Under the pieces are notes generated by a model. The model saw only the letters and a program-made list of their open reading frames with translations. It was not told where the DNA came from and made no database searches. A program made the translations under genes and the position numbers. A DNA stretch of 64,000 nucleotides from an uncultured Dehalococcoidia bacterium (GTDB lineage: Bacteria > Chloroflexota > Dehalococcoidia > Dehalococcoidales > UBA1222), in the NCBI GenBank assembly GCA_903844845.1, contig CAIMVG010000021.1, positions 70,992 to 134,991 of the forward strand. Reading direction: 5' to 3'. Shown here piece after piece: positions 2,243 through 36,791 of this stretch (position 1 is the stretch's first letter; the number at the start of each line of letters is the position of its first letter).

Positions 2243-2254
2243 ACATGGCAGCCC

Positions 2255-2752: not shown

Positions 2753-2773
2753 CCGCGGTATGAGGAGCAAATT

Positions 2774-3358: not shown

Positions 3359-3382
3359 GCTTATATTCGATCGGGATAAAGG

Positions 3383-3409
3383 TACAGCCGGGGGGTTCCC
3401 CCGGCTGTA
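3383..3409. terminator. GC-rich hairpin between convergent ruvA and the membrane-sensor gene
   Basis: TACAGCCGGGG / CCCCGGCTGTA is a perfect 11-bp stem with a 5-nt loop. The U-tract is weak on both strands. Confidence 0.45.
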
Positions 3410-3470
3410 TGCGTGAAGGTGGGTTACGCCAGGAAATCTATTGTTTTTACGAGCACACGGACTCTTATCC

Positions 3471-3500
3471 TGGATCCCGGCTCGCGGGCCGGGATGACAC
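3471..3500 (-). repeat. Dispersed hairpin repeat (GTCAT-stem-loop-stem-ATCCAG family), reverse orientation
   Basis: TGGATCCCGGctcgcggGCCGGGATGACA matches copies at 15331, 17375, 33148, 43743 and 46791. Confidence 0.75.
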
Positions 3501-3517
3501 GGGATAAAGGGAAAATC

Positions 3518-4417
3518 CTATCCCCCGACAAGCATAGACTTAGCCAGCGCCCCCTGCCATTTGCCGACCTGTTTCGCGAGGTGGAATGTACTGAAGAAGA
3601 GCGCCACCCCTGCGACGAACATGATGGGAAGCAGCCAGGGGCTCAGCATGTAATGGTTCCAGCCGGAGACGGAAGAATCGCTGATGTTTATCAGCGACCA
3701 TCCGAGAGCCTGTGCGACAGGTTGGGCGATAAATGCGGCCGAAACCGAGAGCAATGTGACGACAACTGTGAAGTAGGTAACGCCCAACGGCAGCATGAGA
3801 AACATGTAAATCATGGAGAACCAAGTGTACCTGTCGGTGAACATCGCCTTGAAACGGGGCCACAGGCCCTTGCGGTTGTCCGAGAACCTTGCCCTGCGGG
3901 GCATGCGCTCGCCGAGCAGCCCTTCCACGATGCGGCCTTCGAGCCATGCTATGCCCCTGACGGATAGGACGAACAGCGCGAAGAACGGCACGCCGATGAT
4001 GAGCACAGCCAGACCGGCCGAGAGTGAAATCCCCGTGACAACCCAGGTGAAGTAAACGATGCCTGTCCCCAGCGCCAATAGCATGTAGAGCAAAGATGTC
4101 CACGCCCTGCCCTGGCCTAGTATCCCGAAGAAGCGGGCAACCGGGTTGTTGCGTTTAACGGGAGCGGCTCGTGCAGGTTCGATCTTCACAGGCGCCACCC
4201 TGTAGGCCGTAGCCACTTCGGCCGGGGTGCCATAATTCTTAATTATGCCCCCGAGCGCCTCTGCCTCGGACAACGCCGGGCGTGTCTTTTTGGCCGTTTC
4301 CAGAGCGATGCCTAGATATTCCGCCGCGTCGGACAGCGCGTCCTGCACCGTGGCCGGGTCCTGGCCCGCCAGTTCCGCTTTGAGGGAAACCAGGTAATCG
4401 TTAATGCTGTTTATCAT
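3518..4417 (-). CDS. Membrane sensor protein (DUF1700/HAAS-like N-terminus plus duplicated 2-TM sensor modules), partner of PadR
   Basis: Start taken at the ATG at 4417 (MINSINDYLVSLKAEL...), 2 nt after the PadR stop. Two similar hydrophobic modules follow. The PadR plus membrane-anchored partner pairing is a known architecture. Confidence 0.7.
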   Translation of the reverse strand: MINSINDYLVSLKAELAGQDPATVQDALSDAAEYLGIALETAKKTRPALSEAEALGGIIKNYGTPAEVATAYRVAPVKIEPARAAPVKRNNPVARFFGILGQGRAWTSLLYMLLALGTGIVYFTWVVTGISLSAGLAVLIIGVPFFALFVLSVRGIAWLEGRIVEGLLGERMPRRARFSDNRKGLWPRFKAMFTDRYTWFSMIYMFLMLPLGVTYFTVVVTLLSVSAAFIAQPVAQALGWSLINISDSSVSGWNHYMLSPWLLPIMFVAGVALFFSTFHLAKQVGKWQGALAKSMLVGG

Positions 4418-9163: not shown

Positions 9164-10342
9164 TTACCTTTGCCCCGATACGGCTGAAAAAAGCCTGCGG
9201 CTGATAAGAAGGGCGAAGACGGTGACTCCCGCCAAAATGATGAAGGGTACGCCCACGTCGGCGAACGACCCGCTACGGGCCACCAGAGCCTTGAAAGCCT
9301 GGTTGGCGTAGGTGTTGATAGAGAACCGGCTGAGAGTGTAAATAACGGTCCCTTTCGTCAGCGTGAAGAAGGTGCCCCCCAGCATGACGGTGCCCATGGT
9401 GAAGAAAACCGCGATCCAATTGGCTGAGTCGGGCGTCCGCGCCACCGAAGCGATAAGCATCCCCACGGCCCCGCCGGCCGCGGCGAAAACCAGTGAGAGC
9501 CCGATCACTTCAAGGAAGGAGAGCGGGGTGAAGATATGGAAAACCGCGTAGGACAATACAAGCAGGATGACCGTCTGCACGAAGCCGCGCCCCATGCCGG
9601 CCAGGAATTTGCCGGTGAAGAGCTGACTGGTCGTGAGCCGCGTTGTGAGCAGCCTTTCAAGCGTCCCCTTGCGTTTCTCTTCCGCGAAAGCCCTGGCGCC
9701 GATGGTGATTGAGAAGAGGACGTACATCGTTATGATGCCCGGAAGGAACTGGCCGACCGGGTCCGGGAGGCTGCCCGTAAGGTCTTCCCTGATCGAGACA
9801 CTGGGGGAAGTTTTTTCCGTCGCCACGGCCTGCTGCACGGTGTTGAAAATCACTGAAGTCGATATCCCTGTGCCGTCAAGCGCCTGGCTCACGACAGCCT
9901 GCACCTGGAAACCCATATTCAGGTCCGAGATAGCCGCGTTTTCGATGCTGTAGACTATCTGGCCTTCCTGACCGCCGTTGCCGCGCTGTTTGAACGTGAT
10001 TTGGGCCGGCTGCCCTGCAGCCAGTTTGGAGCTGAAATCGGCGGGTATTACCATCAACTGTATGATGTCGGACCGCCCGAGTTTGACTTCGGCGTCGCTC
10101 GCTTTAAGTATCTTTACCGTCAGGCTGTTATTGTGTTCAAGCGTGTTCAAAAGAGATTGTGCGAAAGGGCCGTTGTCCTCGTTCACGATGTTGGCGGTGC
10201 CGTGAAAGAGGTTCTGGCCTCCGAATGCGCCGTAGATGAGCGCGAAAGTGACCACGGGGAGCAACAGGCTGAAAGCCAGGTCCCCCCTGTCCTGCAGATA
10301 AGATTTTATCTCGCGCAGCGCGATCGCCAGTGCGTTCTTCAT
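9164..10342 (-). CDS. ABC-2 type transporter permease
   Basis: 392 aa with the same architecture as the downstream paralog. 4-nt gaps on both sides indicate operon coupling. Confidence 0.8.
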   Translation of the reverse strand: MKNALAIALREIKSYLQDRGDLAFSLLLPVVTFALIYGAFGGQNLFHGTANIVNEDNGPFAQSLLNTLEHNNSLTVKILKASDAEVKLGRSDIIQLMVIPADFSSKLAAGQPAQITFKQRGNGGQEGQIVYSIENAAISDLNMGFQVQAVVSQALDGTGISTSVIFNTVQQAVATEKTSPSVSIREDLTGSLPDPVGQFLPGIITMYVLFSITIGARAFAEEKRKGTLERLLTTRLTTSQLFTGKFLAGMGRGFVQTVILLVLSYAVFHIFTPLSFLEVIGLSLVFAAAGGAVGMLIASVARTPDSANWIAVFFTMGTVMLGGTFFTLTKGTVIYTLSRFSINTYANQAFKALVARSGSFADVGVPFIILAGVTVFALLISRRLFSAVSGQR

Positions 10343-10346
10343 CTTT

Positions 10347-11096
10347 TCAGTCCCGCAGACTTCGGCCCGTAAGGTTGAGGAAGACGTGCTCCAGGGTTAC
10401 GGTGTCGGGGTTGCCGATCTTCTTCTTTAATTCGTACGGCGAGTCCATGGCGATGACCTGCCCGCCGTCGATGATGGCCACGCGCTTGCACAGGTGGTCG
10501 GCTTCCTCCATGTAATGGGTGGTGTATAGCACCGTGATCCCCTGCTTTTGCAGGTTCTGGATGGTTTCGAATATCTTGTTGCGCGACTGGGGGTCGATGC
10601 CCACCGTCGGCTCGTCCAGGAATAGCAGTTGGGGGTGGCCCATGAGGGCGATGGCCAGGTTGACGCGGCGCTTCATTCCGCCCGAATATTTCTGGATCTT
10701 GTCTTTCCCGCGGTCGCTGAGTTCCATCAGTCGGAGGTTGGAGGCGGCCTGTTCGCGGGCTTCCTTGCCGGAGAGCCCTGCCATCTTCCCGAAGAATATA
10801 AGGTTGTCGATGGCCGACATCTCTTCATAGAGGGCCAGGTCCTGCGGGCATATGCCTATAATCTCCCGGACTTTGTCGGCCTGGTTCTTGATGGAGAAGC
10901 CGCCGATGGCGGCGTCTCCCCCGTCGGGGGCCAGCACCGTCGCGAGCATGCGTATGGTGGTCGTCTTGCCGGCCCCGTTGGGGCCCAGCAGGCCGAAACA
11001 TTCACCCTTGTCGATGGTGAACGAAACCCCATCGACGGCTTTTTGCCCGTTGAAATCCTTGCGCAAATCCTTGACTGCCACGAATGGTTCGGACAT
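10347..11096 (-). CDS. ABC transporter ATP-binding protein
   Basis: Walker A GPNGAGKTTT, signature YSGGMKRR, Walker B LLFLDEPT. Confidence 0.92.
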   Translation of the reverse strand: MSEPFVAVKDLRKDFNGQKAVDGVSFTIDKGECFGLLGPNGAGKTTTIRMLATVLAPDGGDAAIGGFSIKNQADKVREIIGICPQDLALYEEMSAIDNLIFFGKMAGLSGKEAREQAASNLRLMELSDRGKDKIQKYSGGMKRRVNLAIALMGHPQLLFLDEPTVGIDPQSRNKIFETIQNLQKQGITVLYTTHYMEEADHLCKRVAIIDGGQVIAMDSPYELKKKIGNPDTVTLEHVFLNLTGRSLRD

Positions 11097-11132
11097 ACGT
11101 GTACCTCCGGGAGGCCCGTTATGATTTTTCGA

Positions 11133-11582
11133 TTATATGCGGTTGTTCTGGATATAAGCCGGGATGTCGGCCGGCGGCACCACGAAGTAGGTCTTGTCGC
11201 CGTTGGCTACGAACAGGTAGACGTCCAGCGCTTTGAAGGCGAAGCTGTGCTCAAATTTCTGGAGGGCCTTGATGAAATCAGGCGTCGCCGGAAAGGCGAT
11301 GCCGTATTTCTTGTTCGGGTCGGTCATGCGGGCCATCAGCTGGCCGAGTCCCATCTGGAAATTCATCTCGGCTGCAGAAAAGCCGCCCTTATCCTCGCCC
11401 TTGGCTTCCAGGATGAACGAAACGCCGTCCTTGTCCACTGCGAGGTCGGCAAATCCACCCGGCAGTTTGACCTGTTCCTTGACGGACCAGCCGTCCTGCT
11501 TGAGGCCGCGCTTGAGAACCCCGATAACATCGCTTTCCTTGAATATATCCACAGTCATCATCCTTTCTATTTTTTCTCGCAT
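11133..11582 (-). CDS. Hypothetical protein with a PD-(D/E)xK-like motif
   Basis: GGFADLAVDKDGVSFILEAKG has D ... E-x-K spacing typical of restriction-endonuclease-fold proteins. No other support. Confidence 0.5.
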   Translation of the reverse strand: MREKIERMMTVDIFKESDVIGVLKRGLKQDGWSVKEQVKLPGGFADLAVDKDGVSFILEAKGEDKGGFSAAEMNFQMGLGQLMARMTDPNKKYGIAFPATPDFIKALQKFEHSFAFKALDVYLFVANGDKTYFVVPPADIPAYIQNNRI

Positions 11583-11728
11583 AGTTTAGCCACAAAAATC
11601 TGCGGGGTCAACTGCCCCGGGGGCATTACCGCCTTGCGGACGGCGAAATTTTGGTTATTGTGATTGTGTTACGGGTGATATATGATGGAGTCAGGGTAAA
11701 ATCAACCGCAGGCCGCGGGTGGGAATCT

Positions 11729-12601
11729 ATGCTGAGAAAATTTCTCTACACCGGCATACTGATCTCGCTGGTACTGGTGACTAACCAGGTAAGGGCCGAT
11801 TCAACCTCCTCTGGCAGCACGCCCGTCGGTTCGGTTACAGTCGCCTCCACCATGACGAGCGGGGCCGTCGAAGTGCGCGTGATGGCTTCCCAGGCAGATG
11901 CGTCTGTTACGTCGGTGAATATGACCCTCTCGAGCGTGGAGATCTACCTCGCTACCGGCTGGACGAAGATGGCAATGGCACAGTCGAACAAAGTGGACCT
12001 CGTCCAGGCGTTCGGAACCGAGCGAACCGTCGCAAGCATGAAGAACCTGAACCCGGGCACCTACAACCAGGTCAGGCTGAATATCTCCGGGTTGGACGTG
12101 ACCCCGGCGGGCGGCAAACCGGTGAAAGCCGCATTGACCCTAAATTCGATTTCCTTCACAAAGAACTACCAGGTGTCGATAAACAACACGACCGTTATCG
12201 TCATCAACTTCGATCCGGTAAAATCGATCGATACGAGCGTGAAGGACCATATCGCTTTCACCCCGGTGGCGAGCCTGCTGGTCGCCCCCGCCGGCGCCCT
12301 CCAGATAATCAACTTCAACCTTGTTCAGGGCAAGGTGGGCCAGGCTTATCATGCGCAGCTGGTAGCCATAGGCGGGCTCCAGCCGTACACCTGGACCATC
12401 ACAATGGGGGACATGCCGGACGGGCTCGCACTCGACCCCGCAACCGGGGTGATTTCCGGTACCCCTTCCAAAGACGGAATATTCTTTTTCACCGTCAGGG
12501 CGGATGATTCGTCGCCGGTCAGGAAAAGCACCGCCAGGGCGACGGCCGGCGGCGTCGTGAACGCGGGCGAACCGGGCGTGACCATCCGCATCTCGCCATA
12601 G
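11729..12601 (+). CDS. Secreted protein: DUF4382-like N-terminal domain plus Ig-like (cadherin/dystroglycan-type) domain
   Basis: Start taken at MLRKFLYTGILISLVLV (signal peptide). The C-terminal G.AY...L.A.GG..PYTW.I..G..P.GL.LD..TG.ISGTP...G...FTV is the putative-Ig motif. Confidence 0.65.
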   Translation: MLRKFLYTGILISLVLVTNQVRADSTSSGSTPVGSVTVASTMTSGAVEVRVMASQADASVTSVNMTLSSVEIYLATGWTKMAMAQSNKVDLVQAFGTERTVASMKNLNPGTYNQVRLNISGLDVTPAGGKPVKAALTLNSISFTKNYQVSINNTTVIVINFDPVKSIDTSVKDHIAFTPVASLLVAPAGALQIINFNLVQGKVGQAYHAQLVAIGGLQPYTWTITMGDMPDGLALDPATGVISGTPSKDGIFFFTVRADDSSPVRKSTARATAGGVVNAGEPGVTIRISP

Positions 12602-19638: not shown

Positions 19639-22059
19639 TTATCTGCCTCCCGCGTTGGCATCATAGTTGCCGCCGGTTTGTTGTGCGGCGCCTGACTGCG
19701 CCTGCATCTGCTGCATCTGTTCCTTCGTATAGGTAGCCGTTTTCCCGCCGGCTTCGGTGGTCGTGACCGACCCGTCTCTATGCAGGTCTATCCTGTTGCC
19801 TTGTTTATCTTGAACGTAACCGGAGCCATCGCTTTTGGTCTTCATCGTGGTGCCTTTCGAGTCCGTGATATCGGAGTTGCCCTGGGCGTCCCAAGAGCCT
19901 GCCCCGTCGGGGCCTTTCATCTCGCCTGAGCCGTCGCTCTTTATATCCTGGGTATTCCCCTTGTCGTCTTTGATGTGCATGTTCCCCTTGTCGTCAGTGG
20001 TCAGATCTAACGTTCCCTGTTCATCCTTGACGTGTGCATCGGTAACATTCCCGCCTTTTATATCGACCGAATTACCCTTTTCATCCTTGATATGCGCCTC
20101 GTTGCCGTCCTGGCTGATATCGGCGGTATTGCCCTTGTCGTCCTTGATGTGCATGGTGCCCTTATCGTCGGTGTTGAGGTCGACCGTTCCCTTGTCATCC
20201 TTGATATGTGCGCTGGTCACGTTGCCGTCCGAGTTGATATCGGCGGTATTGCCCTTGTCGTCCTTGATATGAATGTTGTCGGCATCGTCAGTGTTGACGT
20301 CCATCGTGCCGCCGTCTTCAGTTTTGATATGGCCGTTCATCTTGCCGTCGGCATCGGCATTGATGAAAGAGCCGTCATGGAACTTGGCCCTCAGTCCGTT
20401 CTCGTCGACCGTGATCTTATCGCCATCAGGAGTTTCGCCTTCGAAAGAGCCATCCTCCTTGATGGTTATTTTATTGCCCTGTTCGTCGGTCATGGAACCG
20501 CTCATATTCCCGTCTTTGTCGATTTTCATCGTGCCGCCGGGAGTGGAGATGCTGGCGGAACCATCCTTGTTCATCGTCATTACGGTACCGTCATATGTGG
20601 TTAAAGACCCTTCAGGGTAGCCCTCCTTCGGGCAATGCAGTGTACCGCCATATGGTGATTTTACGTCGATGCTGCCATCCTTATTGAGGGTGGATCCGCC
20701 TGTCCGGCCGTCCGGCAAGGTTATCTCTATTTCGCCGCTAGGTTTTGTGACCTGCAGCCCTGTTTCGGGGCTCCACTCTTTTTTCGTACCGTCGGGGTAA
20801 GACGTGTAACTACTGCCGTCGGGCCCCTCCGAATAGGTGGTGCCGTCGGGATAAATCGTGGTAACCACTTTGTCAGGAGTCCGGTTGATGATCGTCCCGT
20901 CCGGTTGCATCGTGTTGGTCGAGCCGTCCGGCAGGCGCTGGGATTGGAACTTGCCGTCAGCATCGTAGGTGCTTACGGTACCGTTCGGCTGGCGCACCGT
21001 GAGGGTTTTATCCGGGTTCGTTTCGACGGTGGTTCCGGGAGGGTCATCGGGGTTTGTCGAAGGCACCGGACCCTGCGGTACAGGGGGTTCTTCAGGCACA
21101 TCAGGCGGTTCTTCGGGGGGCGGCCCTATTTCGCCGGTCGCGATATCCTCTCCCGCACCTTCGGGTATTTCCGACTCGTCCCCGCCTTCGGCTGACTGCC
21201 CGACGATGACTCCGGCACTTACTCCGGCGACACCGCCCGAAAAGATACCTGCAAAGGTATGGTGAGCACTTTCAAAGTCGAATAGCTGCGACAAGAGAGA
21301 ATGCCCGGAAAATCCCGGGACATTGAGGTGGCTCAAGGCTCCCAAAGCTACCAGGGGAGCCAGAAGGCTCATCGCGCCGGATACCCTTCGGACCGGGGCC
21401 GGTTCAGCTTTGAGAAAGCGCGGCAGGACCCTGGCTACCAGCAGCAGGGCCAGCCCTATCCAGGCAAAATAATATCCCACGCCGAAGAAAGCTTTCAGGA
21501 TGTGCACCCCGGGCCTTTCGGTCAGGTAGCCCGTGATGGTCGGGGAAAAGGTGTAAAGAAGCAATCCTGAAAGGGCCAGCAGCCAGTGGTCTATCTTCTC
21601 GAGGTTCATGCTGCCCCAGTACATGAGTATGATGCTGATGAAAACGATGAAAACAAAACCCGGGAAAATATCGCCTGAGGGGCGGGAGAACAGATTTTTA
21701 GGTATGGCGAATACGATGCTTATGTATTTCGGAATCGTATTAGGCGTATGGCCGCTGGGAAGCGTCATGTAGTCGGCTATCGGTAAAAGGAAAGCTAAAG
21801 AGAAAAAGAGTTTGGCCACTACGGGGCATAGATCGTTAACCAGGTCCTGCCAGGGTTTGAGGTGGAAAGGCAGGCGGTTGAATAGTTTCAACACTACGAA
21901 CCCGGCCAGAGTGGCCACTAAAAGGCCGACGATGCCGCTGAGGAAATAGCCGACGATCAAGCCGGCGAGGATGGAGAGCAAGACAGGGAAACCTTCTTTG
22001 GTGAATAGCCATCTGGTGCGGGCTGCAAGTGACTGTTTGACGCCTGCATCTTTTTTCAT
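19639..22059 (-). CDS. Large membrane-anchored repeat protein (N-terminal multi-TM domain, Pro-rich linker, PDG/DDKGN repeat ectodomain)
   Basis: 806 aa. About 290 aa of hydrophobic helices, then the linker GPPPEEPPDVPEEPPVPQGPVP, then many short ..PDG(T/S).. beta-like repeats. Six or more HIKDDKGN(T/S).D units follow. Confidence 0.75.
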   Translation of the reverse strand: MKKDAGVKQSLAARTRWLFTKEGFPVLLSILAGLIVGYFLSGIVGLLVATLAGFVVLKLFNRLPFHLKPWQDLVNDLCPVVAKLFFSLAFLLPIADYMTLPSGHTPNTIPKYISIVFAIPKNLFSRPSGDIFPGFVFIVFISIILMYWGSMNLEKIDHWLLALSGLLLYTFSPTITGYLTERPGVHILKAFFGVGYYFAWIGLALLLVARVLPRFLKAEPAPVRRVSGAMSLLAPLVALGALSHLNVPGFSGHSLLSQLFDFESAHHTFAGIFSGGVAGVSAGVIVGQSAEGGDESEIPEGAGEDIATGEIGPPPEEPPDVPEEPPVPQGPVPSTNPDDPPGTTVETNPDKTLTVRQPNGTVSTYDADGKFQSQRLPDGSTNTMQPDGTIINRTPDKVVTTIYPDGTTYSEGPDGSSYTSYPDGTKKEWSPETGLQVTKPSGEIEITLPDGRTGGSTLNKDGSIDVKSPYGGTLHCPKEGYPEGSLTTYDGTVMTMNKDGSASISTPGGTMKIDKDGNMSGSMTDEQGNKITIKEDGSFEGETPDGDKITVDENGLRAKFHDGSFINADADGKMNGHIKTEDGGTMDVNTDDADNIHIKDDKGNTADINSDGNVTSAHIKDDKGTVDLNTDDKGTMHIKDDKGNTADISQDGNEAHIKDEKGNSVDIKGGNVTDAHVKDEQGTLDLTTDDKGNMHIKDDKGNTQDIKSDGSGEMKGPDGAGSWDAQGNSDITDSKGTTMKTKSDGSGYVQDKQGNRIDLHRDGSVTTTEAGGKTATYTKEQMQQMQAQSGAAQQTGGNYDANAGGR
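19930..20290 (-). repeat. Intragenic tandem repeats encoding HIKDDKGNTADI.(S/Q)DGN...-type units (about 19-21 codons each)
   Basis: Repeated DNA strings GCCCTTGTCGTCCTTGATGTGCAT / ATTGCCCTTGTCGTCCTTGATATG recur across this interval. The protein shows at least 6 consecutive units. Confidence 0.8.
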
Positions 22060-24966: not shown

Positions 24967-25064
24967 ATATTAATTTCCTTTTAACGAATTTAATACTGAG
25001 CAAATGAAAAATTGCTTTGCTTTCGCGGTATCGAGGGCAATTGAAAATATTCGGTGATAATAAG

Positions 25065-26651
25065 TTAAATGCTGAGTCTTATGTTTTTTAATTCTTCATA
25101 TTGTCTGAAACATTTTTCCATCTCTTCGGCAGGAACATTTAAATTCTCGATGAACCAATTGTCCACGGTTTTCATAGCTAGAGCTCTTTGGTCTTTCAGA
25201 ATTAGGTCGTCGACTCTTGATTCAATGCCGTAAGGAAAAACAAAATTTTCGCCTAAAAAGACTAATGCTTTCTTTGCCGCAGACGGTTCTATCTTTAGCA
25301 CCCCACTTCCGTATGTCTTAGAATATATTTCAAAAGAAAGTTGGGACAATGAGCTGAGCATTGAGAACCGTATCCACCGTAAACTGAGGTCAATATTTTC
25401 AGTGTTCTTTAGATAAACTCCATGGACGTTATTTGTGCTATATATTTTGTCCGGATTCAAAACGATGGTCGGAGTTTCTTTAATCATATAAGGGAGAAAT
25501 GCATCGGGTGATTTCTTTGGTGCAATGCAATACCAAACATTTCTATTTTTACAATGAAGCCTTTTGGCATATCCTTCAACTACGCCTCGTTGTATGTATT
25601 TAGTGAGAGATTCAGAAAGTGGAATATTTTCTGGTATCTCTAAAATATAATCTTGTATGTTAATGGCAGAAATATCTTTGCATTTATACATATCCCGGGC
25701 TTTTCGGACGATTGGTTTAATGAAAGAATCCGGTATCCCCAATTCGGTGGCTTGTATTTTGTTAATAATGAAGAAATTATTTGCGCCAGTTACGGTGCCG
25801 ATTAAAACGTCCGTACATTTACCTAATGGCTGGAATTTGAGGAGATTTCTGAGTTTCTCCAAGCTCTTTGATTCTTTTCTAAATACCTGGAGATTTTCAA
25901 TTGTTGAATTTCCAACTGGAATGGTGCGCCACTTGACATCTCTGTCGGGAATCCCGCGTGAATTGCCGATTTGTATTTTATGAGACCGCGTTCCATATTG
26001 GTCTGCAAAGAGAAGGAGGATTCTTTCTTGGTTTGTATCAAACAATTGTTGTCCTATAACCGCAATTCTTATCTCTCCAAAATTCGCAAAAAGATATTCT
26101 TTGACGGGCCGAGAATATTCTGAATATAAGAACGACCATGGCAGAATTGCACCAAGACTGCCGTTTATCCTGATGTATTTAAGAGAATGTAATATAAAAT
26201 ATGCCCATAAATCACAGGTTTTTCTCACACATGTGGTGCTACTAACGAGCGTGTTTAAATATTTCTTTGTCTCTTTGGTTAATGAATGATGTCGAATATA
26301 TGGCGGATTCATAATGATTGCATCAAATTGGCTTGGTAGGTTGCAGTTCTTCAGATAAAAAAAATCTGTATTAGTTAAATTCCCAATCTCAACGGTTCGG
26401 TTGAGTAAATCCATAATTTTCTTTGGAGGTAGGTTGACGTCACATCCGAAAAGTTGCGTACTCGGATTCGGAGTTCCCAGTGATTCGAAGCGCTTGTGTG
26501 CGGCAAATAACAAGGCTCCATGCCCAAAACAGGGGTCAAATACCGTCGCATGCTCGTTTTTAATAGTATTGTATACCAGGTAGTCAGCTAAGGCTTCAGG
26601 TGTGAAATGAATTCCATCCTTTTTACGAGGGAGAGATTCAGACGTGGTCAT
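25065..26651 (-). CDS. N6-adenine DNA methyltransferase (gamma class, Eco57I/TaqI-like catalytic domain plus C-terminal target-recognition region)
   Basis: Motif I VFDPCFGHGALL, motif IV IIMNPPYIRHH, and a C-terminal GSGVLKIEPS-type segment. Start taken at the ATG at 26651 (MTTSESL), which forms a TAATG overlap with the upstream stop. An alternative start is at 26681. Confidence 0.85.
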   Translation of the reverse strand: MTTSESLPRKKDGIHFTPEALADYLVYNTIKNEHATVFDPCFGHGALLFAAHKRFESLGTPNPSTQLFGCDVNLPPKKIMDLLNRTVEIGNLTNTDFFYLKNCNLPSQFDAIIMNPPYIRHHSLTKETKKYLNTLVSSTTCVRKTCDLWAYFILHSLKYIRINGSLGAILPWSFLYSEYSRPVKEYLFANFGEIRIAVIGQQLFDTNQERILLLFADQYGTRSHKIQIGNSRGIPDRDVKWRTIPVGNSTIENLQVFRKESKSLEKLRNLLKFQPLGKCTDVLIGTVTGANNFFIINKIQATELGIPDSFIKPIVRKARDMYKCKDISAINIQDYILEIPENIPLSESLTKYIQRGVVEGYAKRLHCKNRNVWYCIAPKKSPDAFLPYMIKETPTIVLNPDKIYSTNNVHGVYLKNTENIDLSLRWIRFSMLSSLSQLSFEIYSKTYGSGVLKIEPSAAKKALVFLGENFVFPYGIESRVDDLILKDQRALAMKTVDNWFIENLNVPAEEMEKCFRQYEELKNIRLSI

Positions 26652-27430
26652 TATTGATATGCAATCTCGTGCAGACAGCACTTATCTTTTGCCATCACAG
26701 CATTAACCAAACTTACATAATTCACCCACCAAACTTTTTGGCTTTTGGACACCAAATTGTTCCAAGATCGCTCTTCAACCATGTCATTTAGCGGTGTATC
26801 AAATTCTCTTAAAGCCAAATCCAAAACTAATAAATAATCCATAGGAAAATATTGGATCCGCGGGTTTTCTAGAAATGGCTCAAGGCAATAATGCGAATTC
26901 ATGCCATTAGGTATGGAATTTGGAGGATTCCCACCGTATTGAAGATGGGAAGGGGGTATTTTTTGGTTGCCCGGTTGGAGATCAAAATGGAATTTTCTAA
27001 CAATCCTCTTTCCGGTTTTTTGTGAAACTCGGCAGCAAGAATCTCCGGGAGTAATAAGCCCCTCTGTTTGGAACGTGACCCAAAACGCGAACGAAGACCG
27101 AGTTATAGATTTCTTATCGCCTGTGATTACGCCTCCAATAATAATTGTGGGGTGATGTTGATTTAGCTTTTTGTTCAATACGGGAATTTCGATTAGTGGA
27201 ATATTGCAATGGAAATTGTTGCCTGTTTCTGACTTCAATTTAGCATAGGCTACGGCAATAGAAGCAGCAGGGCTCCCGGTGATTGTAGCGTATCGTTCTT
27301 CATTGATACTTCGAAACTCAGCAGAGCATTGTAAGTAATTTAGAGATTCCAACAGTTGGGTTTGGGCTTCATCACGATCCACTTCGCATGTCTCAGTTTT
27401 GTTGGTCAGTTTATTAGTTAAATCTGGCAT
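26651..27430 (-). CDS. Orphan 259-aa protein (candidate effector or specificity component of the island operon)
   Basis: Uninterrupted ORF, AT-rich like its neighbours, coupled on both sides. I recognise no family motif. Confidence 0.65.
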   Translation of the reverse strand: MPDLTNKLTNKTETCEVDRDEAQTQLLESLNYLQCSAEFRSINEERYATITGSPAASIAVAYAKLKSETGNNFHCNIPLIEIPVLNKKLNQHHPTIIIGGVITGDKKSITRSSFAFWVTFQTEGLITPGDSCCRVSQKTGKRIVRKFHFDLQPGNQKIPPSHLQYGGNPPNSIPNGMNSHYCLEPFLENPRIQYFPMDYLLVLDLALREFDTPLNDMVEERSWNNLVSKSQKVWWVNYVSLVNAVMAKDKCCLHEIAYQ

Positions 27431-27438
27431 ATTCGAGC

Positions 27439-28473
27439 CTAATTTTTTCTGAACGACCTAAATCCGTCAAAGTAGAGGTATCGTTGTTTCGAAATATCAG
27501 GTTGACTGCATCTTATGTGGACCGGAGATTCCTTTTTGTTATCGAGGTCCATCCCGACGGTCTCCGGGAATGGCTCGGAACAGACCGCACACCTACTGCG
27601 TTGTTCCGCTTGGATATCGAATATTTTGTTGGAAATGGACCAAGGTTCATCTGAATCCACGTCAGCGGCTCCAGGTTCCGAAAACAGTAATTGAGTTACT
27701 TCATTGACCCACCATAAAGATTTATGAGTACCATTAAAAACACCCGAATATTTGGCTTTGCTAAATATTTCGGCGATTTTTTCGAAACCCACCTCATTAA
27801 CACCCAATAAAGTTGAGATTCGCAAACTGTCCGAGAGAATGCCTGGCACAACCATCAATTGTCTTCGGACCCATCGAGAAAATGAAATTGTATTCCCCTC
27901 GCCTTCAGAGTCGGTGTCGGGAGTTAACCCATTTCTTAAATTATCTGGTAAAGTTAAAGATATTAACTTTTCACAAGAGTCTGGTACGCGCAACAAATCA
28001 ATTAAAGCTTTCACGTCACCTCTCGGGGTGTCGGCTCTTATTGTTTTGTAATCCAATGCATCGTAATAAAGGGATTGTTCATTTTTTTGGTATCTCTGCA
28101 GTTCTTTAACAGTTAAAATTCTATCAAATACACTTTCGGTTGCTTGTGACCACTTCGAAAGGTCTGCGTATCCGTTTTTATTTTCTTGGTTTGTCACTAG
28201 ATAAATTGGGTGTTCCGGGAATTTTTCTCTTATTAAAGCCCCTGGAGTGAGCCCGTGATCTTGGAAAAAAACATTTTCGGAATTTGGTTTCTGATTCAGA
28301 TATAAATCAACCAAGAAAATGTCCGGGAGATCCGATCCCTTCATCGTCGTTAGAGATGATTTGAATCGAGTTGGATGTGTCCATACTATTCTCAACAGGT
28401 CTGAGCTTAAATTCTGGGATTCCTCAGTTTGGTCTTGATCATCAATCCAAAAAGCCAGTAATTTGGTGCTCAT
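27439..28473 (-). CDS. REC-like (response-regulator receiver) protein with a possible HTH and a C-terminal Cys/His cluster
   Basis: D11 D12 (FWIDDQD), D56 (FLVDLYL), T94 (YLVTNQ) and K107 (DLSKW) reproduce the spacing of the CheY D12/D13/D57/T87/K109 quintet. LRISTLLGVNEVGFEKIAE is HTH-like. CAVC....(x21)..HIRC lies near the C-terminus. Confidence 0.7.
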   Translation of the reverse strand: MSTKLLAFWIDDQDQTEESQNLSSDLLRIVWTHPTRFKSSLTTMKGSDLPDIFLVDLYLNQKPNSENVFFQDHGLTPGALIREKFPEHPIYLVTNQENKNGYADLSKWSQATESVFDRILTVKELQRYQKNEQSLYYDALDYKTIRADTPRGDVKALIDLLRVPDSCEKLISLTLPDNLRNGLTPDTDSEGEGNTISFSRWVRRQLMVVPGILSDSLRISTLLGVNEVGFEKIAEIFSKAKYSGVFNGTHKSLWWVNEVTQLLFSEPGAADVDSDEPWSISNKIFDIQAEQRSRCAVCSEPFPETVGMDLDNKKESPVHIRCSQPDISKQRYLYFDGFRSFRKN

Positions 28474-30743
28474 GGAAATAATACCTCAATGCATGTTTTC
28501 CAAGGGGTCTCTGGTTTTGTGAATCGTATTGAGCCATTATAGGATTCCACAGTTGTTTTAACTATGTTAAGGCCTATTCCGCTACCCCTACCGAGCGCAG
28601 CAAGGGAATCGTTTGCGACCCTCCGTTTTAATGAAGAATATAAATTTCCGGCAGGGTCTGCGTTAAGGGGTTTGAAAACTTCCTCCCAGTATTTTTCTTC
28701 CAGCCCAATTCCATCATCGCAAACCGCTAAAACCTTTTTTCCATTTTGCGAGTATACTTTGACATAAATATTACGGCCGTTACCCGAAAGGTTCGCTTTT
28801 ACCGCATTGGAAATCAAGTTCACGATTATGGAATATATTTCCACTTCAAGGATTGGGCCGATTTTAAAATCTTCAGGGATTTCGACGACTGGTTTGTTAA
28901 TTCCATACTCTTCGATCAAATATTGGAACCCCATCATCACTTCATCGACAATTGGTTTTAACAGTATTAGCTGCCTTTTTGTTTCGCCAGATGTTCTACT
29001 CAATGTTCCAAACAATTGAATCTGTTGGTCTAGCCTGTCACGGGTTTTTCGAAGAGATTGTGCAAATAATGAAAAATCGTGCTGATATATTTTGGGTACA
29101 TCGTTCAACATTCTATCTATCGTGTTGGCGTGAGTATCTAATCTGGCCATCAGGTTTTTAATTTCATGAGAAAAATTGAACATCAAAGAACCTGTAGAGG
29201 CGACAGCTTTTAATATCCCAAGGTAAATTTCTGATATTGAATAGGATTGCTTTACGAATTCGCTTGCTGCATTCAATCTAATTTCAGCTTTGCGTCGTTG
29301 TTCTTCAGGTAAAGTTTTAAGAGCTGTTTTAGCTTCATCAGAAATCAATGTTAACGCTTTTAGGGCTATTGGGGTCGTTTCTTCGGTTGGGGAAAAGCTG
29401 AAATTTGTCTTATCACCGAGCAATCCTTCCAATTCCTCGGCTTTTTTATACAATTCTCTTCTTCCTGTGACAAGCAAAAATTCATTGTAATGTAAAACCA
29501 TCCATTGAATAGAAAGTCGAAGAACCGTAACAAGATCTTCGAATGATGAGTCCTCAATAAACCCTTCCCTATCGAGTTTGACCTGCAAGGGCATCGATGG
29601 ACCAGAATTTATCACAACATTCCCGTAAAGTTGTTGGTTTCGCGGGGAATTGAGCATTGCCCTCAGCGGGTCTACCCCCAATTTAGAAGCTATTTCGCTC
29701 AACCTGTCATCTGTTCGCCCTTTGCGCCTCGCGACGTCTGCATCGATGCGTAACCAATCGTTTCCTGCATCTCCATAAGGGTACACTCGGAATCCATCGA
29801 GATAAACTCGAACTCCACCTTGTTCTGTAAGAAGATCCAAGATACCTGTTTTTGTGATAATTCTAGTGTCTCTTAACAGGCTCTTTTGCATTGGAAGCCA
29901 GGCAATTTCAAAGGTTATTCCTTTTAAGTTTTCGAACGCTTCATCCAGTCCAAATTCTTTTAACCCGATTTCCTTTGCTTCGAGCTTCAAATTACAGATG
30001 CCTTGATTATTTATTTCTCCTTCAAGTTTCCCCCAACCTGCGTCTAATAATTGCCTTGATAAAATTCCCTCACCACTGGGAAATTCCGGGGCCTCCAGTT
30101 TTATTTCGAACCCCGGGTCTTCCTCAAAACCTTCTCTTCTCACGCCTTTAACGATGGAAAGTCCTAAAACGTGTCTTCTGAGAAGGTTGAAATCGCTGTC
30201 AGTCCAACGCTCCACAAGGTTGGTCAAAATCAAACTTAACCCAGTTTTCCCGTTTATTAACAAGTCTCGTGTATAGACACATGGTATTTGGGTTAGAGTG
30301 GTGCCCGGTTTGAAATCCCCCCAATTGAAAGTTACCTTTGTCTTTTCTAAACCTCTTTTTTCGGACGTCGTTCCAACTGTCTCCATCACCAGCTTTTTTG
30401 CCAGCCTGCGACAGGCGAATCGCCCTACACCCTTGTTACCGGTTTTACGTCTCCCGTATTTTGGTGATACGGGCGCGCGAACTTTTGAAGTCGTTGCTAT
30501 CCTCATCCAATAGTCACTTACCTCTTGGAAAGACATACCGTGCCCATTGTCTGAGATGTGAATTTCGCCTTGGTTAGGGCCTTTTTTTGCCTTGATAAAC
30601 TTGATGACAATTTCCGTTGCATCAGCGTCATAAGCGTTTTTGATGAGTTCTGCCAACGCAACATAGTTCCTGGTGACCAATCGCTCACCAAGTTCGCCTA
30701 ATAATTGGCTGTCAACGCTAAATGATAATTCAGTCTTAGGCAT
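28470..30743 (-). CDS. Dual Bergerat-fold protein: N-terminal MORC/MutL/Hsp90-like GHKL ATPase plus C-terminal histidine kinase (H-box plus HATPase_c)
   Basis: N-terminal module: ELIKNAYDADA (N box), ISDNGHGMS (G1), GNKGVGRFA (G2). C-terminal module: FSHEIKNLMARL (H box), IVNLISNAVKA (N), CDDGIGL (G1), GRGSGIGLNIV (G2). Start taken at the ATG at 30743 (MPKTEL). The track start at 30812 would add a hydrophobic 23-aa extension. Confidence 0.8.
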   Translation of the reverse strand: MPKTELSFSVDSQLLGELGERLVTRNYVALAELIKNAYDADATEIVIKFIKAKKGPNQGEIHISDNGHGMSFQEVSDYWMRIATTSKVRAPVSPKYGRRKTGNKGVGRFACRRLAKKLVMETVGTTSEKRGLEKTKVTFNWGDFKPGTTLTQIPCVYTRDLLINGKTGLSLILTNLVERWTDSDFNLLRRHVLGLSIVKGVRREGFEEDPGFEIKLEAPEFPSGEGILSRQLLDAGWGKLEGEINNQGICNLKLEAKEIGLKEFGLDEAFENLKGITFEIAWLPMQKSLLRDTRIITKTGILDLLTEQGGVRVYLDGFRVYPYGDAGNDWLRIDADVARRKGRTDDRLSEIASKLGVDPLRAMLNSPRNQQLYGNVVINSGPSMPLQVKLDREGFIEDSSFEDLVTVLRLSIQWMVLHYNEFLLVTGRRELYKKAEELEGLLGDKTNFSFSPTEETTPIALKALTLISDEAKTALKTLPEEQRRKAEIRLNAASEFVKQSYSISEIYLGILKAVASTGSLMFNFSHEIKNLMARLDTHANTIDRMLNDVPKIYQHDFSLFAQSLRKTRDRLDQQIQLFGTLSRTSGETKRQLILLKPIVDEVMMGFQYLIEEYGINKPVVEIPEDFKIGPILEVEIYSIIVNLISNAVKANLSGNGRNIYVKVYSQNGKKVLAVCDDGIGLEEKYWEEVFKPLNADPAGNLYSSLKRRVANDSLAALGRGSGIGLNIVKTTVESYNGSIRFTKPETPWKTCIEVLFP

Positions 30744-31023
30744 GGAAAAAGCTCTCCCAGCAAAGATAACAAGTCTGAGAATGAATATATTCCAAATTGG
30801 GGTTGCTTTCAAGCATGTTGTTTTTAGGGACTAAAATCTAAAAGAAGAATTGGAATAACGATGTTTGATTTTCACAAATCGTACTTTTTGGTACATTATT
30901 AAACATCGCGAGTCTAGCGGTGTAGTTTATTGAATAGAAATTCTGACGGTTAAAGACTTTAGTTGGGTCGCTCAAATGCAGGATTTCGTCTCGTTGTAAA
31001 ATCCTTACAGGAGGGAAATACAA

Positions 31024-34129: not shown

Positions 34130-34510
34130 TCAAGCGTGCGTTAATACCGGGCCTGCGCATTGGGCGATTTTGTCCAGAAGCTCCCTGAGATTGAACGGCT
34201 TGGTGACATAATCGGCGGCGCCCACGTTCTTGGCAAATTGTTTGTTCAGCTGGAAACCCACCGCCGTCAACATGATGATAGGTATCCCGGCAGTCTTCGG
34301 GTTGGATTTCAGGCTGGATGCTACCGCGTAACCGTCCATCTCGGGCATCATGATATCCAGCAGGATGACATCCGTTTTTTGGCGGGCGGCTATGTCCAGC
34401 CCGTCTTTGCCGTTTGACGCTGAAAGCACGTTGTAGCCGTAAGCAGTAGCCATGTCCCGTACGAGTTTGACGGCCATCGGGTCATCATCGATAACAAGCA
34501 GGTTCTTCAC
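34130..34510 (-). CDS. Single-domain response regulator (REC only)
   Basis: LLVIDDDP ... DVILLDIMMPEMDG ... PIIMLTA ... K receiver signature, 126 aa. Confidence 0.9.
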   Translation of the reverse strand: MKNLLVIDDDPMAVKLVRDMATAYGYNVLSASNGKDGLDIAARQKTDVILLDIMMPEMDGYAVASSLKSNPKTAGIPIIMLTAVGFQLNKQFAKNVGAADYVTKPFNLRELLDKIAQCAGPVLTHA

Positions 34511-36791
34511 ATAGTTCTCCTTTTTTTATCGGCAAAGTAAAATAGAAACGGCTGCCTTTGTTTTTTCCGTCGCTCTCCACCCAGATATTTCCTCCGTGAG
34601 TTTCGACGATACGTTTGCTGATTGCCAGTCCCAATCCGGTGCCCGGTGTTTTAGAAATCAGGCCGCTCTGGACTTGATAGAAATCGGTAAAAAGTTTATC
34701 GATGTGTTCGGGAGGAATCCCGATGCCGTTGTCGGCCACGCTGAAAACGAGGGTGTTATCGTCGTTGCGGCCCTGGATATTGATGCTGCCGCCATCCGGC
34801 GTAAATTTCACGGCGTTGGAGAGCAGATTGAACATAACCTGTTTGATCCTGCGCTCGTCTATCGAATATTCACGGGTTTGCAGTTCCGGGGATACCTGAA
34901 CATTAATCTTGATCCCTCGCCTGGCGGTTTTTTCCTTTACCATCAGGAGGCTGCTGTTTATCAGGTTCTGGATGTTTACGGGTGAAAATTGCAGTTCCAC
35001 CTTGCCTGCTTCTATCTTCGCAAGGTCGAGTACGTCATTGATGAGTTCCAGTAAATGCCGCCCGCTGGTCAGGATGTCATCGATATATCCGGATTGCTTT
35101 TCATTGAGAGGGCCGTATAATTTCTGTTCGAGAAGCTGGGAGAACCCCAGGATAGCACTGAGCGGGGTGCGGAGTTCGTGGGACATACTGGCCAGGAAAT
35201 CGCTCTTGGCTTGGTTCGAAGCATTGGCGGCCACCACAGCCTGTTCGAGCTGTTCCGTTCTCTCGGCAACCTTGGCTTCCAATCTCAGGTTAAGCAATTT
35301 GAGGTCCTGGTTCAGTCGTGCCAGGGACTCGGCCGCATTTTGACGCTCCGTGTTATCGATGAGAGTGCTCACGAGTTGTTTTCCGTTGGCATCGTCAGTT
35401 TGAACTATAGTATTCTGGGATGCCCAGAATTTCATGCCGTTATTGCGTTTCCAGATGGTTTCGAAATTTTTGACCACCCCGTCTTGCTCCAACTTCTGAA
35501 ACAGGCGTGTTCTTTCTTCAGGATCGGCATACAGCGACCACGCATAAAGGTCCTGGATCTCATTTTCCCCATGAAAACCGAACATCTCCAGGGCGGTCTT
35601 GTTTGCACTCAGTATCTTGCCGTTGGACAAGGACGTCACTATCCCGATAGGGGCATTTTCCACTAGGTTGCGGAACTTGGCTTCGGATATCCTGAGGGCC
35701 TCTTCGGCATGCTGGCGCTCGATGAGTTCGGTTTCGAGCACTGCTCTCCGGGTAGATTCGGCTTCAGCTTCCTTTTGCCGGGTGATGTCGTGCAGCATCA
35801 CCAGGTACCCGCTGATGCAGTTCCGCGTGACGATGGGAGAGGTGCGGAGTTCATAGCAGCGCTTGTCGGGGTTTCCATCTGGCGAGTGGATAATGATTTC
35901 CCTGGAATCGGCCTCGGCTTGACTCGGTTGTGGTTGGCCCGGCAAAACACGCTCATACGCCTGCCCGATGACGTCACGCGTCCCGCTGCCGAGAATAGCC
36001 CTTGCTACGTAATTGAGTTCAATCACGCGCAGTTCGCTATCCAATACCATCACGCCGTCGGACATGCTTTTAAAAACTACGTCGTAGGCCACCGGCATGA
36101 TATCCAGCAGGTGGAAGCGGGAAAGGCCCCAAAAAAAGGCGGCCCCGGTGATGGTAAAGGCAAATGGCGTCGGATCGATGGCCAGCACCGTGGTGCCGAG
36201 GTAAAAGACGTTGGCCACCCAGGGCACCGCGGTCCCCAGCAGGACGACGACGAGCTGTTTCCGGTAGATGCCTGACGATCGCGTGAACGAGCTGTACAGC
36301 ATGACCGTGCCAGCCAGGATGAGGCCGTAAGAGTAGGCTGTGTGGGCCCAGAACCAGTAACCATGAGTGACGGCGTCAACCGGAGGTGAGACTGATGTGT
36401 TTAGCCAGATGTCCTTCCACATCAGGTGGGTGGTGCCATTCGTCCAGACGTTTATCAGAGTGATTGCCGGGAGGATGCAAAGCAGGATCAGCCTGCCCCG
36501 CGTAAGCCACTTTTCACGCCCTGTGTATTCCAGCGTGAATACAAACCAGAAGACAGGCATGACGGTGATGCCGAAATAAGACAGGTTTATGCAGACTTTC
36601 TTGGCGTCGAGGCTGAGGGCGGAATATTCGGCCAATGCTGCCAGAGACCACCATGCCAGTGAAAGCATTAGAACCAGAAAGGACAGCGCCATAGTTTTTT
36701 TTCTGAATTTCCTCAATCTCAAAGCGAGCAGGGCCGCTCCGCAAAAAGCCGTCAGGGGCAACAGTGTATTGACGTTAATAATGAAGCGCAT
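34485..36791 (-). CDS. Sensor histidine kinase (N-terminal 7TM domain, two PAS-like domains, HisKA, HATPase_c)
   Basis: About 230 aa of seven hydrophobic helices; PAS-like segments; H box FLASMSHELRTPL; N box FNLLSNAVKFT; G boxes DNGIGI and GTGLGLAI. Confidence 0.9.
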   Translation of the reverse strand: MRFIINVNTLLPLTAFCGAALLALRLRKFRKKTMALSFLVLMLSLAWWSLAALAEYSALSLDAKKVCINLSYFGITVMPVFWFVFTLEYTGREKWLTRGRLILLCILPAITLINVWTNGTTHLMWKDIWLNTSVSPPVDAVTHGYWFWAHTAYSYGLILAGTVMLYSSFTRSSGIYRKQLVVVLLGTAVPWVANVFYLGTTVLAIDPTPFAFTITGAAFFWGLSRFHLLDIMPVAYDVVFKSMSDGVMVLDSELRVIELNYVARAILGSGTRDVIGQAYERVLPGQPQPSQAEADSREIIIHSPDGNPDKRCYELRTSPIVTRNCISGYLVMLHDITRQKEAEAESTRRAVLETELIERQHAEEALRISEAKFRNLVENAPIGIVTSLSNGKILSANKTALEMFGFHGENEIQDLYAWSLYADPEERTRLFQKLEQDGVVKNFETIWKRNNGMKFWASQNTIVQTDDANGKQLVSTLIDNTERQNAAESLARLNQDLKLLNLRLEAKVAERTEQLEQAVVAANASNQAKSDFLASMSHELRTPLSAILGFSQLLEQKLYGPLNEKQSGYIDDILTSGRHLLELINDVLDLAKIEAGKVELQFSPVNIQNLINSSLLMVKEKTARRGIKINVQVSPELQTREYSIDERRIKQVMFNLLSNAVKFTPDGGSINIQGRNDDNTLVFSVADNGIGIPPEHIDKLFTDFYQVQSGLISKTPGTGLGLAISKRIVETHGGNIWVESDGKNKGSRFYFTLPIKKGELCEEPACYR

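Follow-up and report, generated by a model that had tools for sequence, protein, structure and literature searches.

An uncharacterised protein family as candidate effector of a putative phosphorelay- and methylation-linked gene cassette in Dehalococcoidia

The 64,000-nucleotide stretch of contig CAIMVG010000021.1 (positions 70,992 to 134,991 of the forward strand) from an uncultured Dehalococcoidia bacterium, referred to below as the window, carries a low-GC (guanine-plus-cytosine) island of ~5.8 kb (25000..31000, no strand) that consists of exactly four genes, coding for a kinase, a receiver-like protein, a protein without annotation, and a DNA methyltransferase. The third of these genes, referred to here as the orphan, is an open reading frame (ORF) of 259 amino acids (27430..26651, minus strand, ATG to TAA) and is the proposed catalytic effector of the cassette.

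The orphan and its cassette

The first-pass annotation of this DNA had reported an uninterrupted 259-residue ORF at exactly these positions (the assignment to the minus strand is an addition) and had described it as AT-rich like its neighbours, in agreement with the composition profile, in which the GC content is 0.41 in the ORF and 0.37-0.46 over positions 25000-31000 versus 0.51-0.57 in the flanks on either side. The flanking genes in the window are unrelated housekeeping genes (EamA transporter, CxxCxxCC protein, cation efflux), and a search for terminal or flanking repeats at the island ends found none.

The kinase stop codon and the ATG of the receiver gene overlap by 4 nucleotides (28470-28473; of the ATGA type, going by the coordinates), the gap between the end of the receiver gene and the orphan ATG is 8 nucleotides, and the orphan TAA stop codon (26653..26651) has one base in common with the methyltransferase ATG (26651..26649). 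This last overlap, TAATG, had been pointed out earlier, and its frame has been verified. A sigma-70-like match (TTGACG-17-AAAAAT, 9/12; window positions 27442-27470, minus strand) is located in the 3'-terminal part of the receiver gene, a short way upstream of the orphan ATG. Such matches are no more numerous in the region than expected by chance, and this one serves only as a lead for an internal promoter that could drive the orphan and methyltransferase genes. The best promoter-like match of the region (10/12, positions 30812-30784) is found just upstream of the kinase ATG.

The first gene of the cassette (28470..30743, minus strand) codes for a 757-residue fusion of a GHKL ATPase with a histidine kinase, recognised by Pfam and NCBIfam, which is the proposed sensor. 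Its N-terminus is a MutL/MORC-type GHKL ATPase (Pfam HATPase_c_3, 5e-24), a region that also matches the N-terminus of the BbrUII/HgiDII restriction enzymes in NCBIfam and REase_II in PADLOC, and its C-terminus is a complete histidine kinase, with the H-box FSHEIKN, a HATPase_c domain (1.9e-22), and matches to NCBIfam histidine-kinase models. Across 14 kinase orthologs, the GHKL ATP-binding box and the H, N, and G boxes do not vary, and the middle region contains no recognisable nuclease motif. The longest ORF (780 residues) begins with TTG 30812, and the orthologs and gene callers favour ATG 30743 (757 residues), which is the most likely start.

The second gene (27439..28473, minus strand) codes for a 344-residue protein with an acidic pocket (D11/D12), a putative acceptor Asp residue (D56), a conserved middle domain (PGFLYD..WW), and a C-terminal zinc site (C295-x2-C298...H319-x2-C322). 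The first-pass annotation had called it a REC gene, which agrees with the invariance of D11, D12, and D56 at the REC acidic-pocket and acceptor-Asp positions (alignment A3), while the overall sequence similarity is weak. The window protein matches no curated family; Pfam Response_reg is weakly matched by 5 of 14 homologs (best E 0.011); and, in a comparison of the receiver profile with the PDB, 15 of the 18 weak matches (best E 0.0046) are REC domains aligned at D11/D12/D56. Some sources name its orthologs "response regulator." The C-terminal 200 residues contain zinc ligands and aromatic or glycine invariants only, with no catalytic-looking set.

The fourth gene (25065..26651, minus strand) encodes a 528-residue N6-adenine DNA methyltransferase of the Eco57I-type gamma class, with an NPPY motif and its own C-terminal recognition domain; it matches Pfam N6_Mtase, Eco57I, and M_Eco57I_C and, over its full length, PADLOC MTase_II (8e-68). 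The orphan had been described as the only gene of unaccounted function in the operon, and this description stands: the cassette comprises four genes, no conserved fifth gene was seen in the flanks of 15 loci (see below), and the conserved positions in the C-terminal half of the receiver protein are limited to zinc ligands and structural residues. If the ATPase, kinase, and methyltransferase sites are left aside, the only enzyme-like set of invariant polar residues in the cassette is that of the orphan.

The orphan family, its predicted fold and conserved residues

A word-indexed search of 5.8 billion proteins returned only 10 relatives of the orphan, whose alignment was used to seed an exhaustive HMMER search. 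The resulting family comprises 939 clusters (at 50% identity) with E <= 1e-3, or 410 clusters with E <= 1e-10. Because its homologs reach E = 3e-57 at 43% identity and its family has this size, the orphan is a real gene and not a chance ORF. The best 150 family matches listed are single-domain proteins of ~220-280 residues, all shorter than 280. Many distant members align only from profile positions ~95-130 onwards, that is, over the C-terminal half, and the family is accordingly variable in its N-terminal part. Most members are basic, with a median isoelectric point (pI) of 9.0 in alignment A4.

The family is unannotated and its fold is unrecognised: in every copy found, the protein either is named "hypothetical protein" or carries no annotation. 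The orphan itself has zero matches in Pfam, NCBIfam, PADLOC, and PHROGs, and 99 diverse family members scanned singly against Pfam, PADLOC, and NCBIfam gave no consistent match, just scattered single chance ones. A sequence search of the PDB with the single sequence and two profiles produced nothing usable, the matches to Mediator Med8 (E 0.08) and a poxvirus protein (E 0.8) being noise, and the phage collection contained no homolog.

AlphaFold models based on a 10-sequence alignment (pLDDT 78, pTM 0.79) and on a 120-sequence alignment (pLDDT 86.9, pTM 0.88) have the same topology, with N-terminal helices, long antiparallel strands predicted at residues 73-83, 95-104, 108-121, 141-151, and 161-165, two additional short strands, and a C-terminal helical bundle (residues 199-257). 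Foldseek comparison of the orphan model with the PDB and BFVD returned no significant match; modelling followed by structure search, the check proposed with the first-pass annotation, gave a confident model of unrecognised fold.

Conservation of charged residues across homologs, also proposed for checking, proved to be pronounced: in 99-120 sequences with ~20% pairwise identity, the polar residues R145, H148, D150, H162, Q164, and R191 are invariant or nearly so, and the same holds for F149, P159, Y165, G167, P190, P196, F210, and W223, probably for structural reasons. The conserved core (residues 141-167, KRIVRKFHFD...PPSHLQYGG; 26930..27010, minus strand), modelled with pLDDT 85-92 as two neighbouring beta-strands, includes R145, H148, D150, H162, and Q164. 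The second conserved motif (residues 190-197, PRIQYFPM; 26840..26863, minus strand) includes the invariant P190 along with R191 and P196, and its PR..P pattern aligns likewise in the homolog from a Rhizobium plasmid. In the model, H148/D150 and H162/Q164 are located on consecutive strands with matching residue parity, and the four residues probably form a single surface patch. This conserved polar pattern suggests an enzyme.

Profile searches with the protein and the 99 relatives concur with the earlier statement that no PD-(D/E)xK, HNH, GIY-YIG, PLD, or clear HEPN motif could be found in the orphan. With respect to PD-(D/E)xK enzymes, these searches gave no nuclease profile match and Foldseek no match to the restriction-endonuclease fold, and neither D198 nor E209 of the local PMD...LREF string is conserved across the family; a PD-(D/E)xK identity is rejected. 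No HNH profile was matched either, and EndoG chains, representing the His-Me finger fold, were retrieved by Foldseek only at E > 1 and TM < 0.1. The GIY-YIG and PLD (HKD) motifs are not found in the conserved columns and gave no profile matches. The EndoU two-His spacing, the 2-His-1-carboxylate triad (HxD...H), the PabI half-pipe, ADP-ribosyltransferases, and histidine phosphatases were rejected because the relevant PDB structures gave no match, and a double-stranded beta-helix oxygenase was rejected because the 12 residues from HxD to the next His are too few.

Genomic context and the position after the receiver gene

The gene neighbourhoods were compared in 16 independent loci, namely the window, contigs of close homologs, ten loci from a 185,579-species genome set, two found via the receiver protein, and a complete Halomicrobium plasmid. 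In all 16, even at 27-38% identity, the orphan is found directly after the receiver gene on the same strand, and the receiver gene follows the GHKL-kinase gene in every locus whose contig reaches upstream; start/stop overlaps or near-abutments of the cassette genes are seen across loci. The hosts include Desulfobacteria, Chloroflexia, Planctomycetia, Phycisphaerales, Binatia, Syntrophobacteraceae, Pyrinomonadaceae, a Thermoplasmata archaeon, and a haloarchaeon (the Halomicrobium plasmid). The distribution of the cassette is patchy, and it is laterally transferred. The surroundings of the other loci feature integrases, IS66, toxin-antitoxin pairs, Mrr, BglII, GmrSD, and plasmids.

An N6 methyltransferase gene adjoins the cassette wherever the contig is long enough, usually after the orphan, yet it is the least fixed part. 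In locus L004, the methyltransferase is convergent and belongs to a different lineage, and on the Halomicrobium plasmid the N6 methylase gene is divergent and lies upstream of the cassette. In four Desulfobacteria loci (L001-L003 and L012), the cassette methyltransferase is cut to a 64-residue N-terminal stub, with the kinase, receiver, and orphan intact and all orphan invariants kept; in L001, the stub (9482-9676) is followed at 10022-12496 by an unrelated Eco57I-type methyltransferase (577 residues) and an XhoI-family endonuclease, and the same is seen in L002, L003, and L012. The stub arrangement of L001 recurs in several samples, representing a natural case of an orphan without its cognate methylase. 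On the plasmid pLC1Hm-01 of Halomicrobium sp. LC1Hm (locus L024, 7728-8537; NZ_CP044130.1, 107558-108367), an intact 269-residue orphan homolog, whose ATG overlaps the stop codon of the response regulator gene, is missing from the gene table of the plasmid, and the next gene, in place of the methyltransferase, codes for a metallophosphoesterase.

Full-length relatives of the window kinase with 23-28% identity are found on plasmids of many bacteria, and in these the position after the receiver gene is a variable slot, since the relatives hold there an MBL-fold hydrolase, Vsr, an orphan-like protein, or nothing; in several of them the slot is filled by a known hydrolase. In the annotated neighbourhoods on the Burkholderia aenigmatica and Hymenobacter volaticus plasmids, the genes code for an N6 methyltransferase, a kinase, a receiver, and an MBL-fold metallo-hydrolase. 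The receivers of these two cassettes (L033, 3619-8788, and L034, 3637-8771) are short, ~228 residues, and the cassettes seem to be a further, uncharacterised version of this modular system. A Burkholderia glumae plasmid encodes a kinase, a receiver-like protein, Vsr, and a C5 methyltransferase. The plasmid of Rhizobium sp. TH2 encodes a kinase, a receiver-like protein, a 235-residue protein, and the product of a GIY-YIG-annotated gene, with a methyltransferase gene located divergently upstream. Its 235-residue protein bears the orphan motifs KSFHFD...HPPFHMQ...PRLP (hmmsearch E 4e-6; hhalign probability 92%), and the GIY-YIG-annotated gene (L026, 10112-11041; 309 residues), 13 nucleotides after the orphan-like gene, has a C-terminal DUF4357 as its sole Pfam match, which suggests that some cassettes hold two candidate effectors. 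A Paraburkholderia plasmid carries genes for a helix-turn-helix (HTH) regulator, a methyltransferase, a kinase, a receiver-like protein, and a 225-residue protein with the string HYD...HPIFHAQ, a weak relative of the orphan (hhalign probability 57%).

The relatives on Campylobacter pTet-type plasmids and in Acaryochloris comprise a kinase, a receiver with a different C-terminal domain, and a C5 methyltransferase, with no third gene. In Campylobacter coli pCCDM224L (L027, 5998-10451), the three genes code for a GHKL-kinase, a response regulator, and a convergent Dcm, and this three-gene relative is found on conjugative pTet-type plasmids of Campylobacter jejuni and C. coli. Matches of this kind are present in 41 Campylobacter plasmid records, the neighbourhoods having been read for L027 and for L030 from Acaryochloris. 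The L027 response regulator's C-terminal domain has a conserved PSCD string that it shares with Acaryochloris, and this domain may be a fused effector.

Several other features of these loci deserve mention. A full-length mutS gene lies within ~2 kb upstream of the cassette in L001 from Desulfobacteria (623-3229) and in L013 from Chloroflexia (1253-3823), the two copies being 47% identical, and in L001 an integrase gene is located between mutS and the cassette; this proximity could reflect chance, a common insertion hotspot, or a tie to the MutL-like ATPase. In the window itself, an ordinary-looking two-component pair a few kilobases from the island (34130-36791, minus strand; a HisKA_7TM/PAS histidine kinase of 768 residues and a single-domain response regulator of 126 residues) bears no relation to the cassette, though it could be confused with it. 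Another gene (19639-22059, minus strand) codes for an 806-residue protein with an N-terminal hydrophobic region that is probably membrane-spanning, a Pro/Glu-rich linker, and many degenerate DGxxxxHIKDDKGN-type repeats, for which no confident family assignment was obtained.

Proposed role and relation to known systems

The closest characterised architecture is that of Ambrosia (AbrR-AbrA-AbrB-AbrC-AbrD), a system validated against phage in Pseudomonas aeruginosa that consists of an XRE regulator, an N6 methyltransferase, a kinase/HATPase, a REC-wHTH protein, and a type IV HNH protein (10.1101/2025.09.30.679545). All its genes and the acceptor Asp residue (D60) are needed, its expression is induced upon infection, and methylation by AbrA gives phage no protection; mark-and-cut and transcriptional gating have been proposed for it, with the HNH protein AbrD acting on methyltransferase-marked DNA (10.1101/2025.09.30.679545). 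By analogy, with a probability of about one-half, the orphan is the catalytic output subunit, probably a nucleic-acid hydrolase, of a laterally mobile, Ambrosia-like, phosphorelay-gated, and methylation-linked four-gene defence cassette. The grounds for this assignment are that three of the four cassette genes are accounted for and the output half of the receiver looks non-catalytic, that the orphan has an enzyme-like set of invariant residues, and that the same slot in the relatives is filled by HNH, MBL hydrolase, or Vsr proteins. The two His, the Asp, the Gln, and the two Arg residues would fit phosphate-ester chemistry, and on this residue pattern nuclease activity is the most likely. Of the earlier suggestion that the orphan is a missing effector or nuclease, the effector role is well supported by context, and the nuclease identity is putative, no known nuclease fold or motif having been assignable.

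The cassette could operate as follows. The MutL/MORC-type ATPase part of the kinase fusion would sense invading or abnormal DNA, upon which the kinase would autophosphorylate on the H-box His residue and pass the phosphate to D56 of the receiver, both residues being conserved and the transfer being modelled on two-component systems, Ambrosia, and Detocs, which shows that an immune effector can be under the control of a His-Asp relay and that a third gene can serve as a buffer (10.1101/2023.01.24.525353). The phosphorylated receiver, with its DNA-binding-looking, zinc-containing C-terminal half, might then turn on the orphan and the N6-adenine methyltransferase, either the genes or their products; as all four genes are tightly coupled, separate transcriptional control of the orphan and the methyltransferase is less obvious. 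In the orphan, the active site would combine H148/D150 from one beta-strand with H162/Q164 from the following strand, R145 and R191 lying close by, and would hydrolyse a phosphate ester in nucleic acid, making the protein a nuclease or a nickase. It may attack DNA marked by the partner methyltransferase, as proposed for AbrD.

Several observations weigh against a catalytic effector role. A third gene is missing altogether from the Campylobacter and Acaryochloris relatives, and in Rhizobium the orphan-like protein may not be the nuclease, given the separate GIY-YIG-annotated gene. The window orphan is itself slightly acidic (pI 6.65), the spatial closeness of the four key residues is deduced from strand parity and hairpin register in the model rather than from coordinates, and the same residue set would fit a phosphatase or a ligand-binding site too.

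Among the alternatives, an unlikely one that nevertheless merits attention is that the orphan is a non-catalytic adaptor or reader, for example of methylation state, that couples the phosphorylated receiver to the methyltransferase or to DNA, the effector role falling instead to the GHKL ATPase, to the receiver's C-terminal domain, or to a host nuclease that is not linked to the cassette. The failure of Foldseek to recognise a catalytic fold, the translational coupling of the orphan to the methyltransferase, which would accord with a complex, the invariant or highly conserved aromatic residues F149, Y165, F210, and W223, and the separate GIY-YIG-annotated gene of the Rhizobium locus are all consistent with such a role; however, an invariant His/Asp/His/Gln/Arg/Arg set at ~20% identity would be unusual for a pure adaptor, the cassette has no other conserved effector candidate, and hydrolases fill the same position in relatives. 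Somewhat less likely still, the orphan could be a phosphorelay accessory, a phosphatase or phosphate sink that drains the kinase and receiver against autoimmunity, like DtcB of Detocs or CheZ, with the receiver C-terminal domain as the effector. Asp and Gln along with Arg and His provide the chemistry of phospho-Asp and phospho-His phosphatases (CheZ, CheX, kinase phosphatase motifs), and the conserved residues of the orphan would suit it; furthermore, Detocs requires its third, buffer gene, and some relatives of the cassette work without a third gene. This reading, however, would leave the cassette effectorless, as the C-terminal half of the receiver has no catalytic-type invariants, and it is at odds with the occupants of the slot in relatives, which are nucleases or hydrolases and not relay proteins, and with the absence of any likeness to known phosphatase families or folds in the Pfam, NCBIfam, PDB sequence, and Foldseek searches.

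It is improbable that the orphan is an ordinary type II restriction endonuclease sharing its recognition site with the adjoining methyltransferase and blocked by the methylation that this enzyme introduces, with the kinase and receiver as mere regulators. Restriction enzymes often have no detectable homologs, and the orphan, with its variable N-terminal half, adjoins and is coupled to a stand-alone type II-like methyltransferase. However, the kinase and receiver genes accompany it in all loci that reach far enough upstream, and typical restriction-enzyme orphans do not form families like this one, in which 939 clusters have a single conserved core and a single fixed context. The methyltransferase is of another lineage or position in L004 and the Halomicrobium plasmid, all orphan invariants are kept in the loci where it is a stub, and in Ambrosia methylation by AbrA does not shield phage. 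The truncated and exchanged methyltransferases speak against a simple type II endonuclease that is constitutively active and site-matched, and favour a gated effector, whose relation to methylation may, by analogy to Ambrosia, be one of mark and cut. For the same reasons, the premise that the methyltransferase shields self DNA from the orphan is questionable. Equally improbable is that the cassette serves not in defence but as an epigenetic switch under two-component control or as a selfish addiction module, giving the orphan a regulatory or other role: the window island lies in housekeeping surroundings that include no other defence genes, and a 2021 study of related kinase/receiver pairs, discussed below, proposed no more than their functional association with restriction-modification (R-M) systems (PMC8011034), but the patchy spread over bacterial and archaeal phyla, the low GC content of the island, the integrase, IS, plasmid, and defence-island contexts of other loci, and the anti-phage activity of Ambrosia all speak for defence. 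Finally, the first-pass annotation had noted that the string RIVRKFH fits Rx5H. The string is indeed present at residues 142-148 and fits the Rx4-6H pattern of HEPN-type RNases, but identification of the orphan as such an RNase is highly improbable and is rejected, as R142 is not conserved in the wider family (consensus ILRKFHFD in alignment A4), the invariant Arg being R145 (Rx2H), the segment is a beta-strand in both AlphaFold models whereas HEPN domains are all-helical, and no HEPN profile or fold was matched.

If the orphan is indeed the catalytic output, a bolder and more tentative version of this proposal is that it defines a new enzyme fold with a His/Asp-based activity, as a nuclease or as another hydrolase of nucleic acids, and would be the exchangeable effector of a widespread two-component restriction system in which a MORC-like ATPase-kinase senses, the phosphorelay licenses, and the co-translated N6 methyltransferase marks DNA for attack rather than protecting self. 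The catalytic candidates are defined (H148, D150, H162, Q164, R145, and R191), and cultured carriers exist, such as Halomicrobium sp. LC1Hm with pLC1Hm-01 and, for more distant relatives, the plasmids of Rhizobium sp. TH2 and Paraburkholderia. The family of 939 clusters has no Pfam, NCBIfam, or PADLOC model, and defence-system finders are blind to the cassette. Should the enzyme act on methyl-marked DNA, it could represent a new class of reagents.

Comparison with known systems places the cassette among several partial likenesses, MADS and WonAB having been considered from the literature and found irrelevant. The methyltransferase half would fit a classical type II R-M pair, but the putative partner always comes with the kinase and receiver and is intact where the methyltransferase is replaced or truncated. 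With Detocs (DtcA/DtcB/DtcC), the cassette would share a His-Asp phosphorelay for anti-phage use, a small third gene, and exchangeable effector domains; however, no sequence relation was found (PADLOC gave nothing beyond generic matches for the kinase, receiver, and orphan), and in Detocs the effector, a PNP ATP nucleosidase, is fused to REC, the third gene is a bare REC buffer, and there is neither a methyltransferase nor a GHKL/MORC sensor. MORC and paraMORC GHKL ATPases located in R-M operons were described by Iyer, Abhiman and Aravind in 2008 (PMC2292703); these operons and BbrUII/HgiDII resemble the cassette in the MutL/MORC-type GHKL module, the match to the BbrUII/HgiDII N-terminus, and the methyltransferase linkage, but in the cassette the place of their nuclease or helicase, whether fused or neighbouring, is taken by a histidine-kinase module, a receiver, and the orphan.

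Closer similarities are seen in the kinases with the HATPase_c_3+HEF_HK+HATPase_c architecture described by Bellieny-Rabelo et al. in 2021, which are paired with Response_reg_2 proteins (91.6% linked) and are enriched, along with these, near type II R-M genes, with Vsr or HNH_2 commonly encoded after the receiver-like gene (PMC8011034). Similarly, the window kinase combines HATPase_c_3, a DHp domain with an invariant H-box His, and HATPase_c, its neighbour is a divergent REC-like protein that lacks known output domains, the proteins are soluble, and the genes are linked to a DNA methyltransferase. Unlike those pairs, the window proteins match neither PF19191 (HEF_HK) nor PF19192 (Response_reg_2), even at E up to 1-5, and the described pairs are mostly tied to C5 methyltransferases with Vsr or HNH_2, with the orphan family not named there.

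Compared by published description, the cassette is most similar to Ambrosia: in both, a single cluster encodes an N6 methyltransferase, a kinase with an HSP90-like HATPase, a REC protein, and the product of one gene after REC, and the REC acceptor Asp residue that is required in Ambrosia is conserved in the window receiver (D56). The Paraburkholderia plasmid relative even has the Ambrosia order, with an HTH regulator, methyltransferase, kinase, receiver-like, and orphan-like protein. However, the gene after REC codes for a type IV HNH protein in Ambrosia and for a protein of unrecognised fold without an HNH signature in the window, the window cassette has no XRE regulator gene and follows the order kinase, REC, orphan, methyltransferase, and Ambrosia has been reported from Gammaproteobacteria only, whereas the orphan family is found in many phyla and in archaea. 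Hybrids of two-component and R-M systems were validated only recently, with Ambrosia, and the window cassette represents a variant with an unannotated enzyme candidate in the effector slot, found across many phyla.

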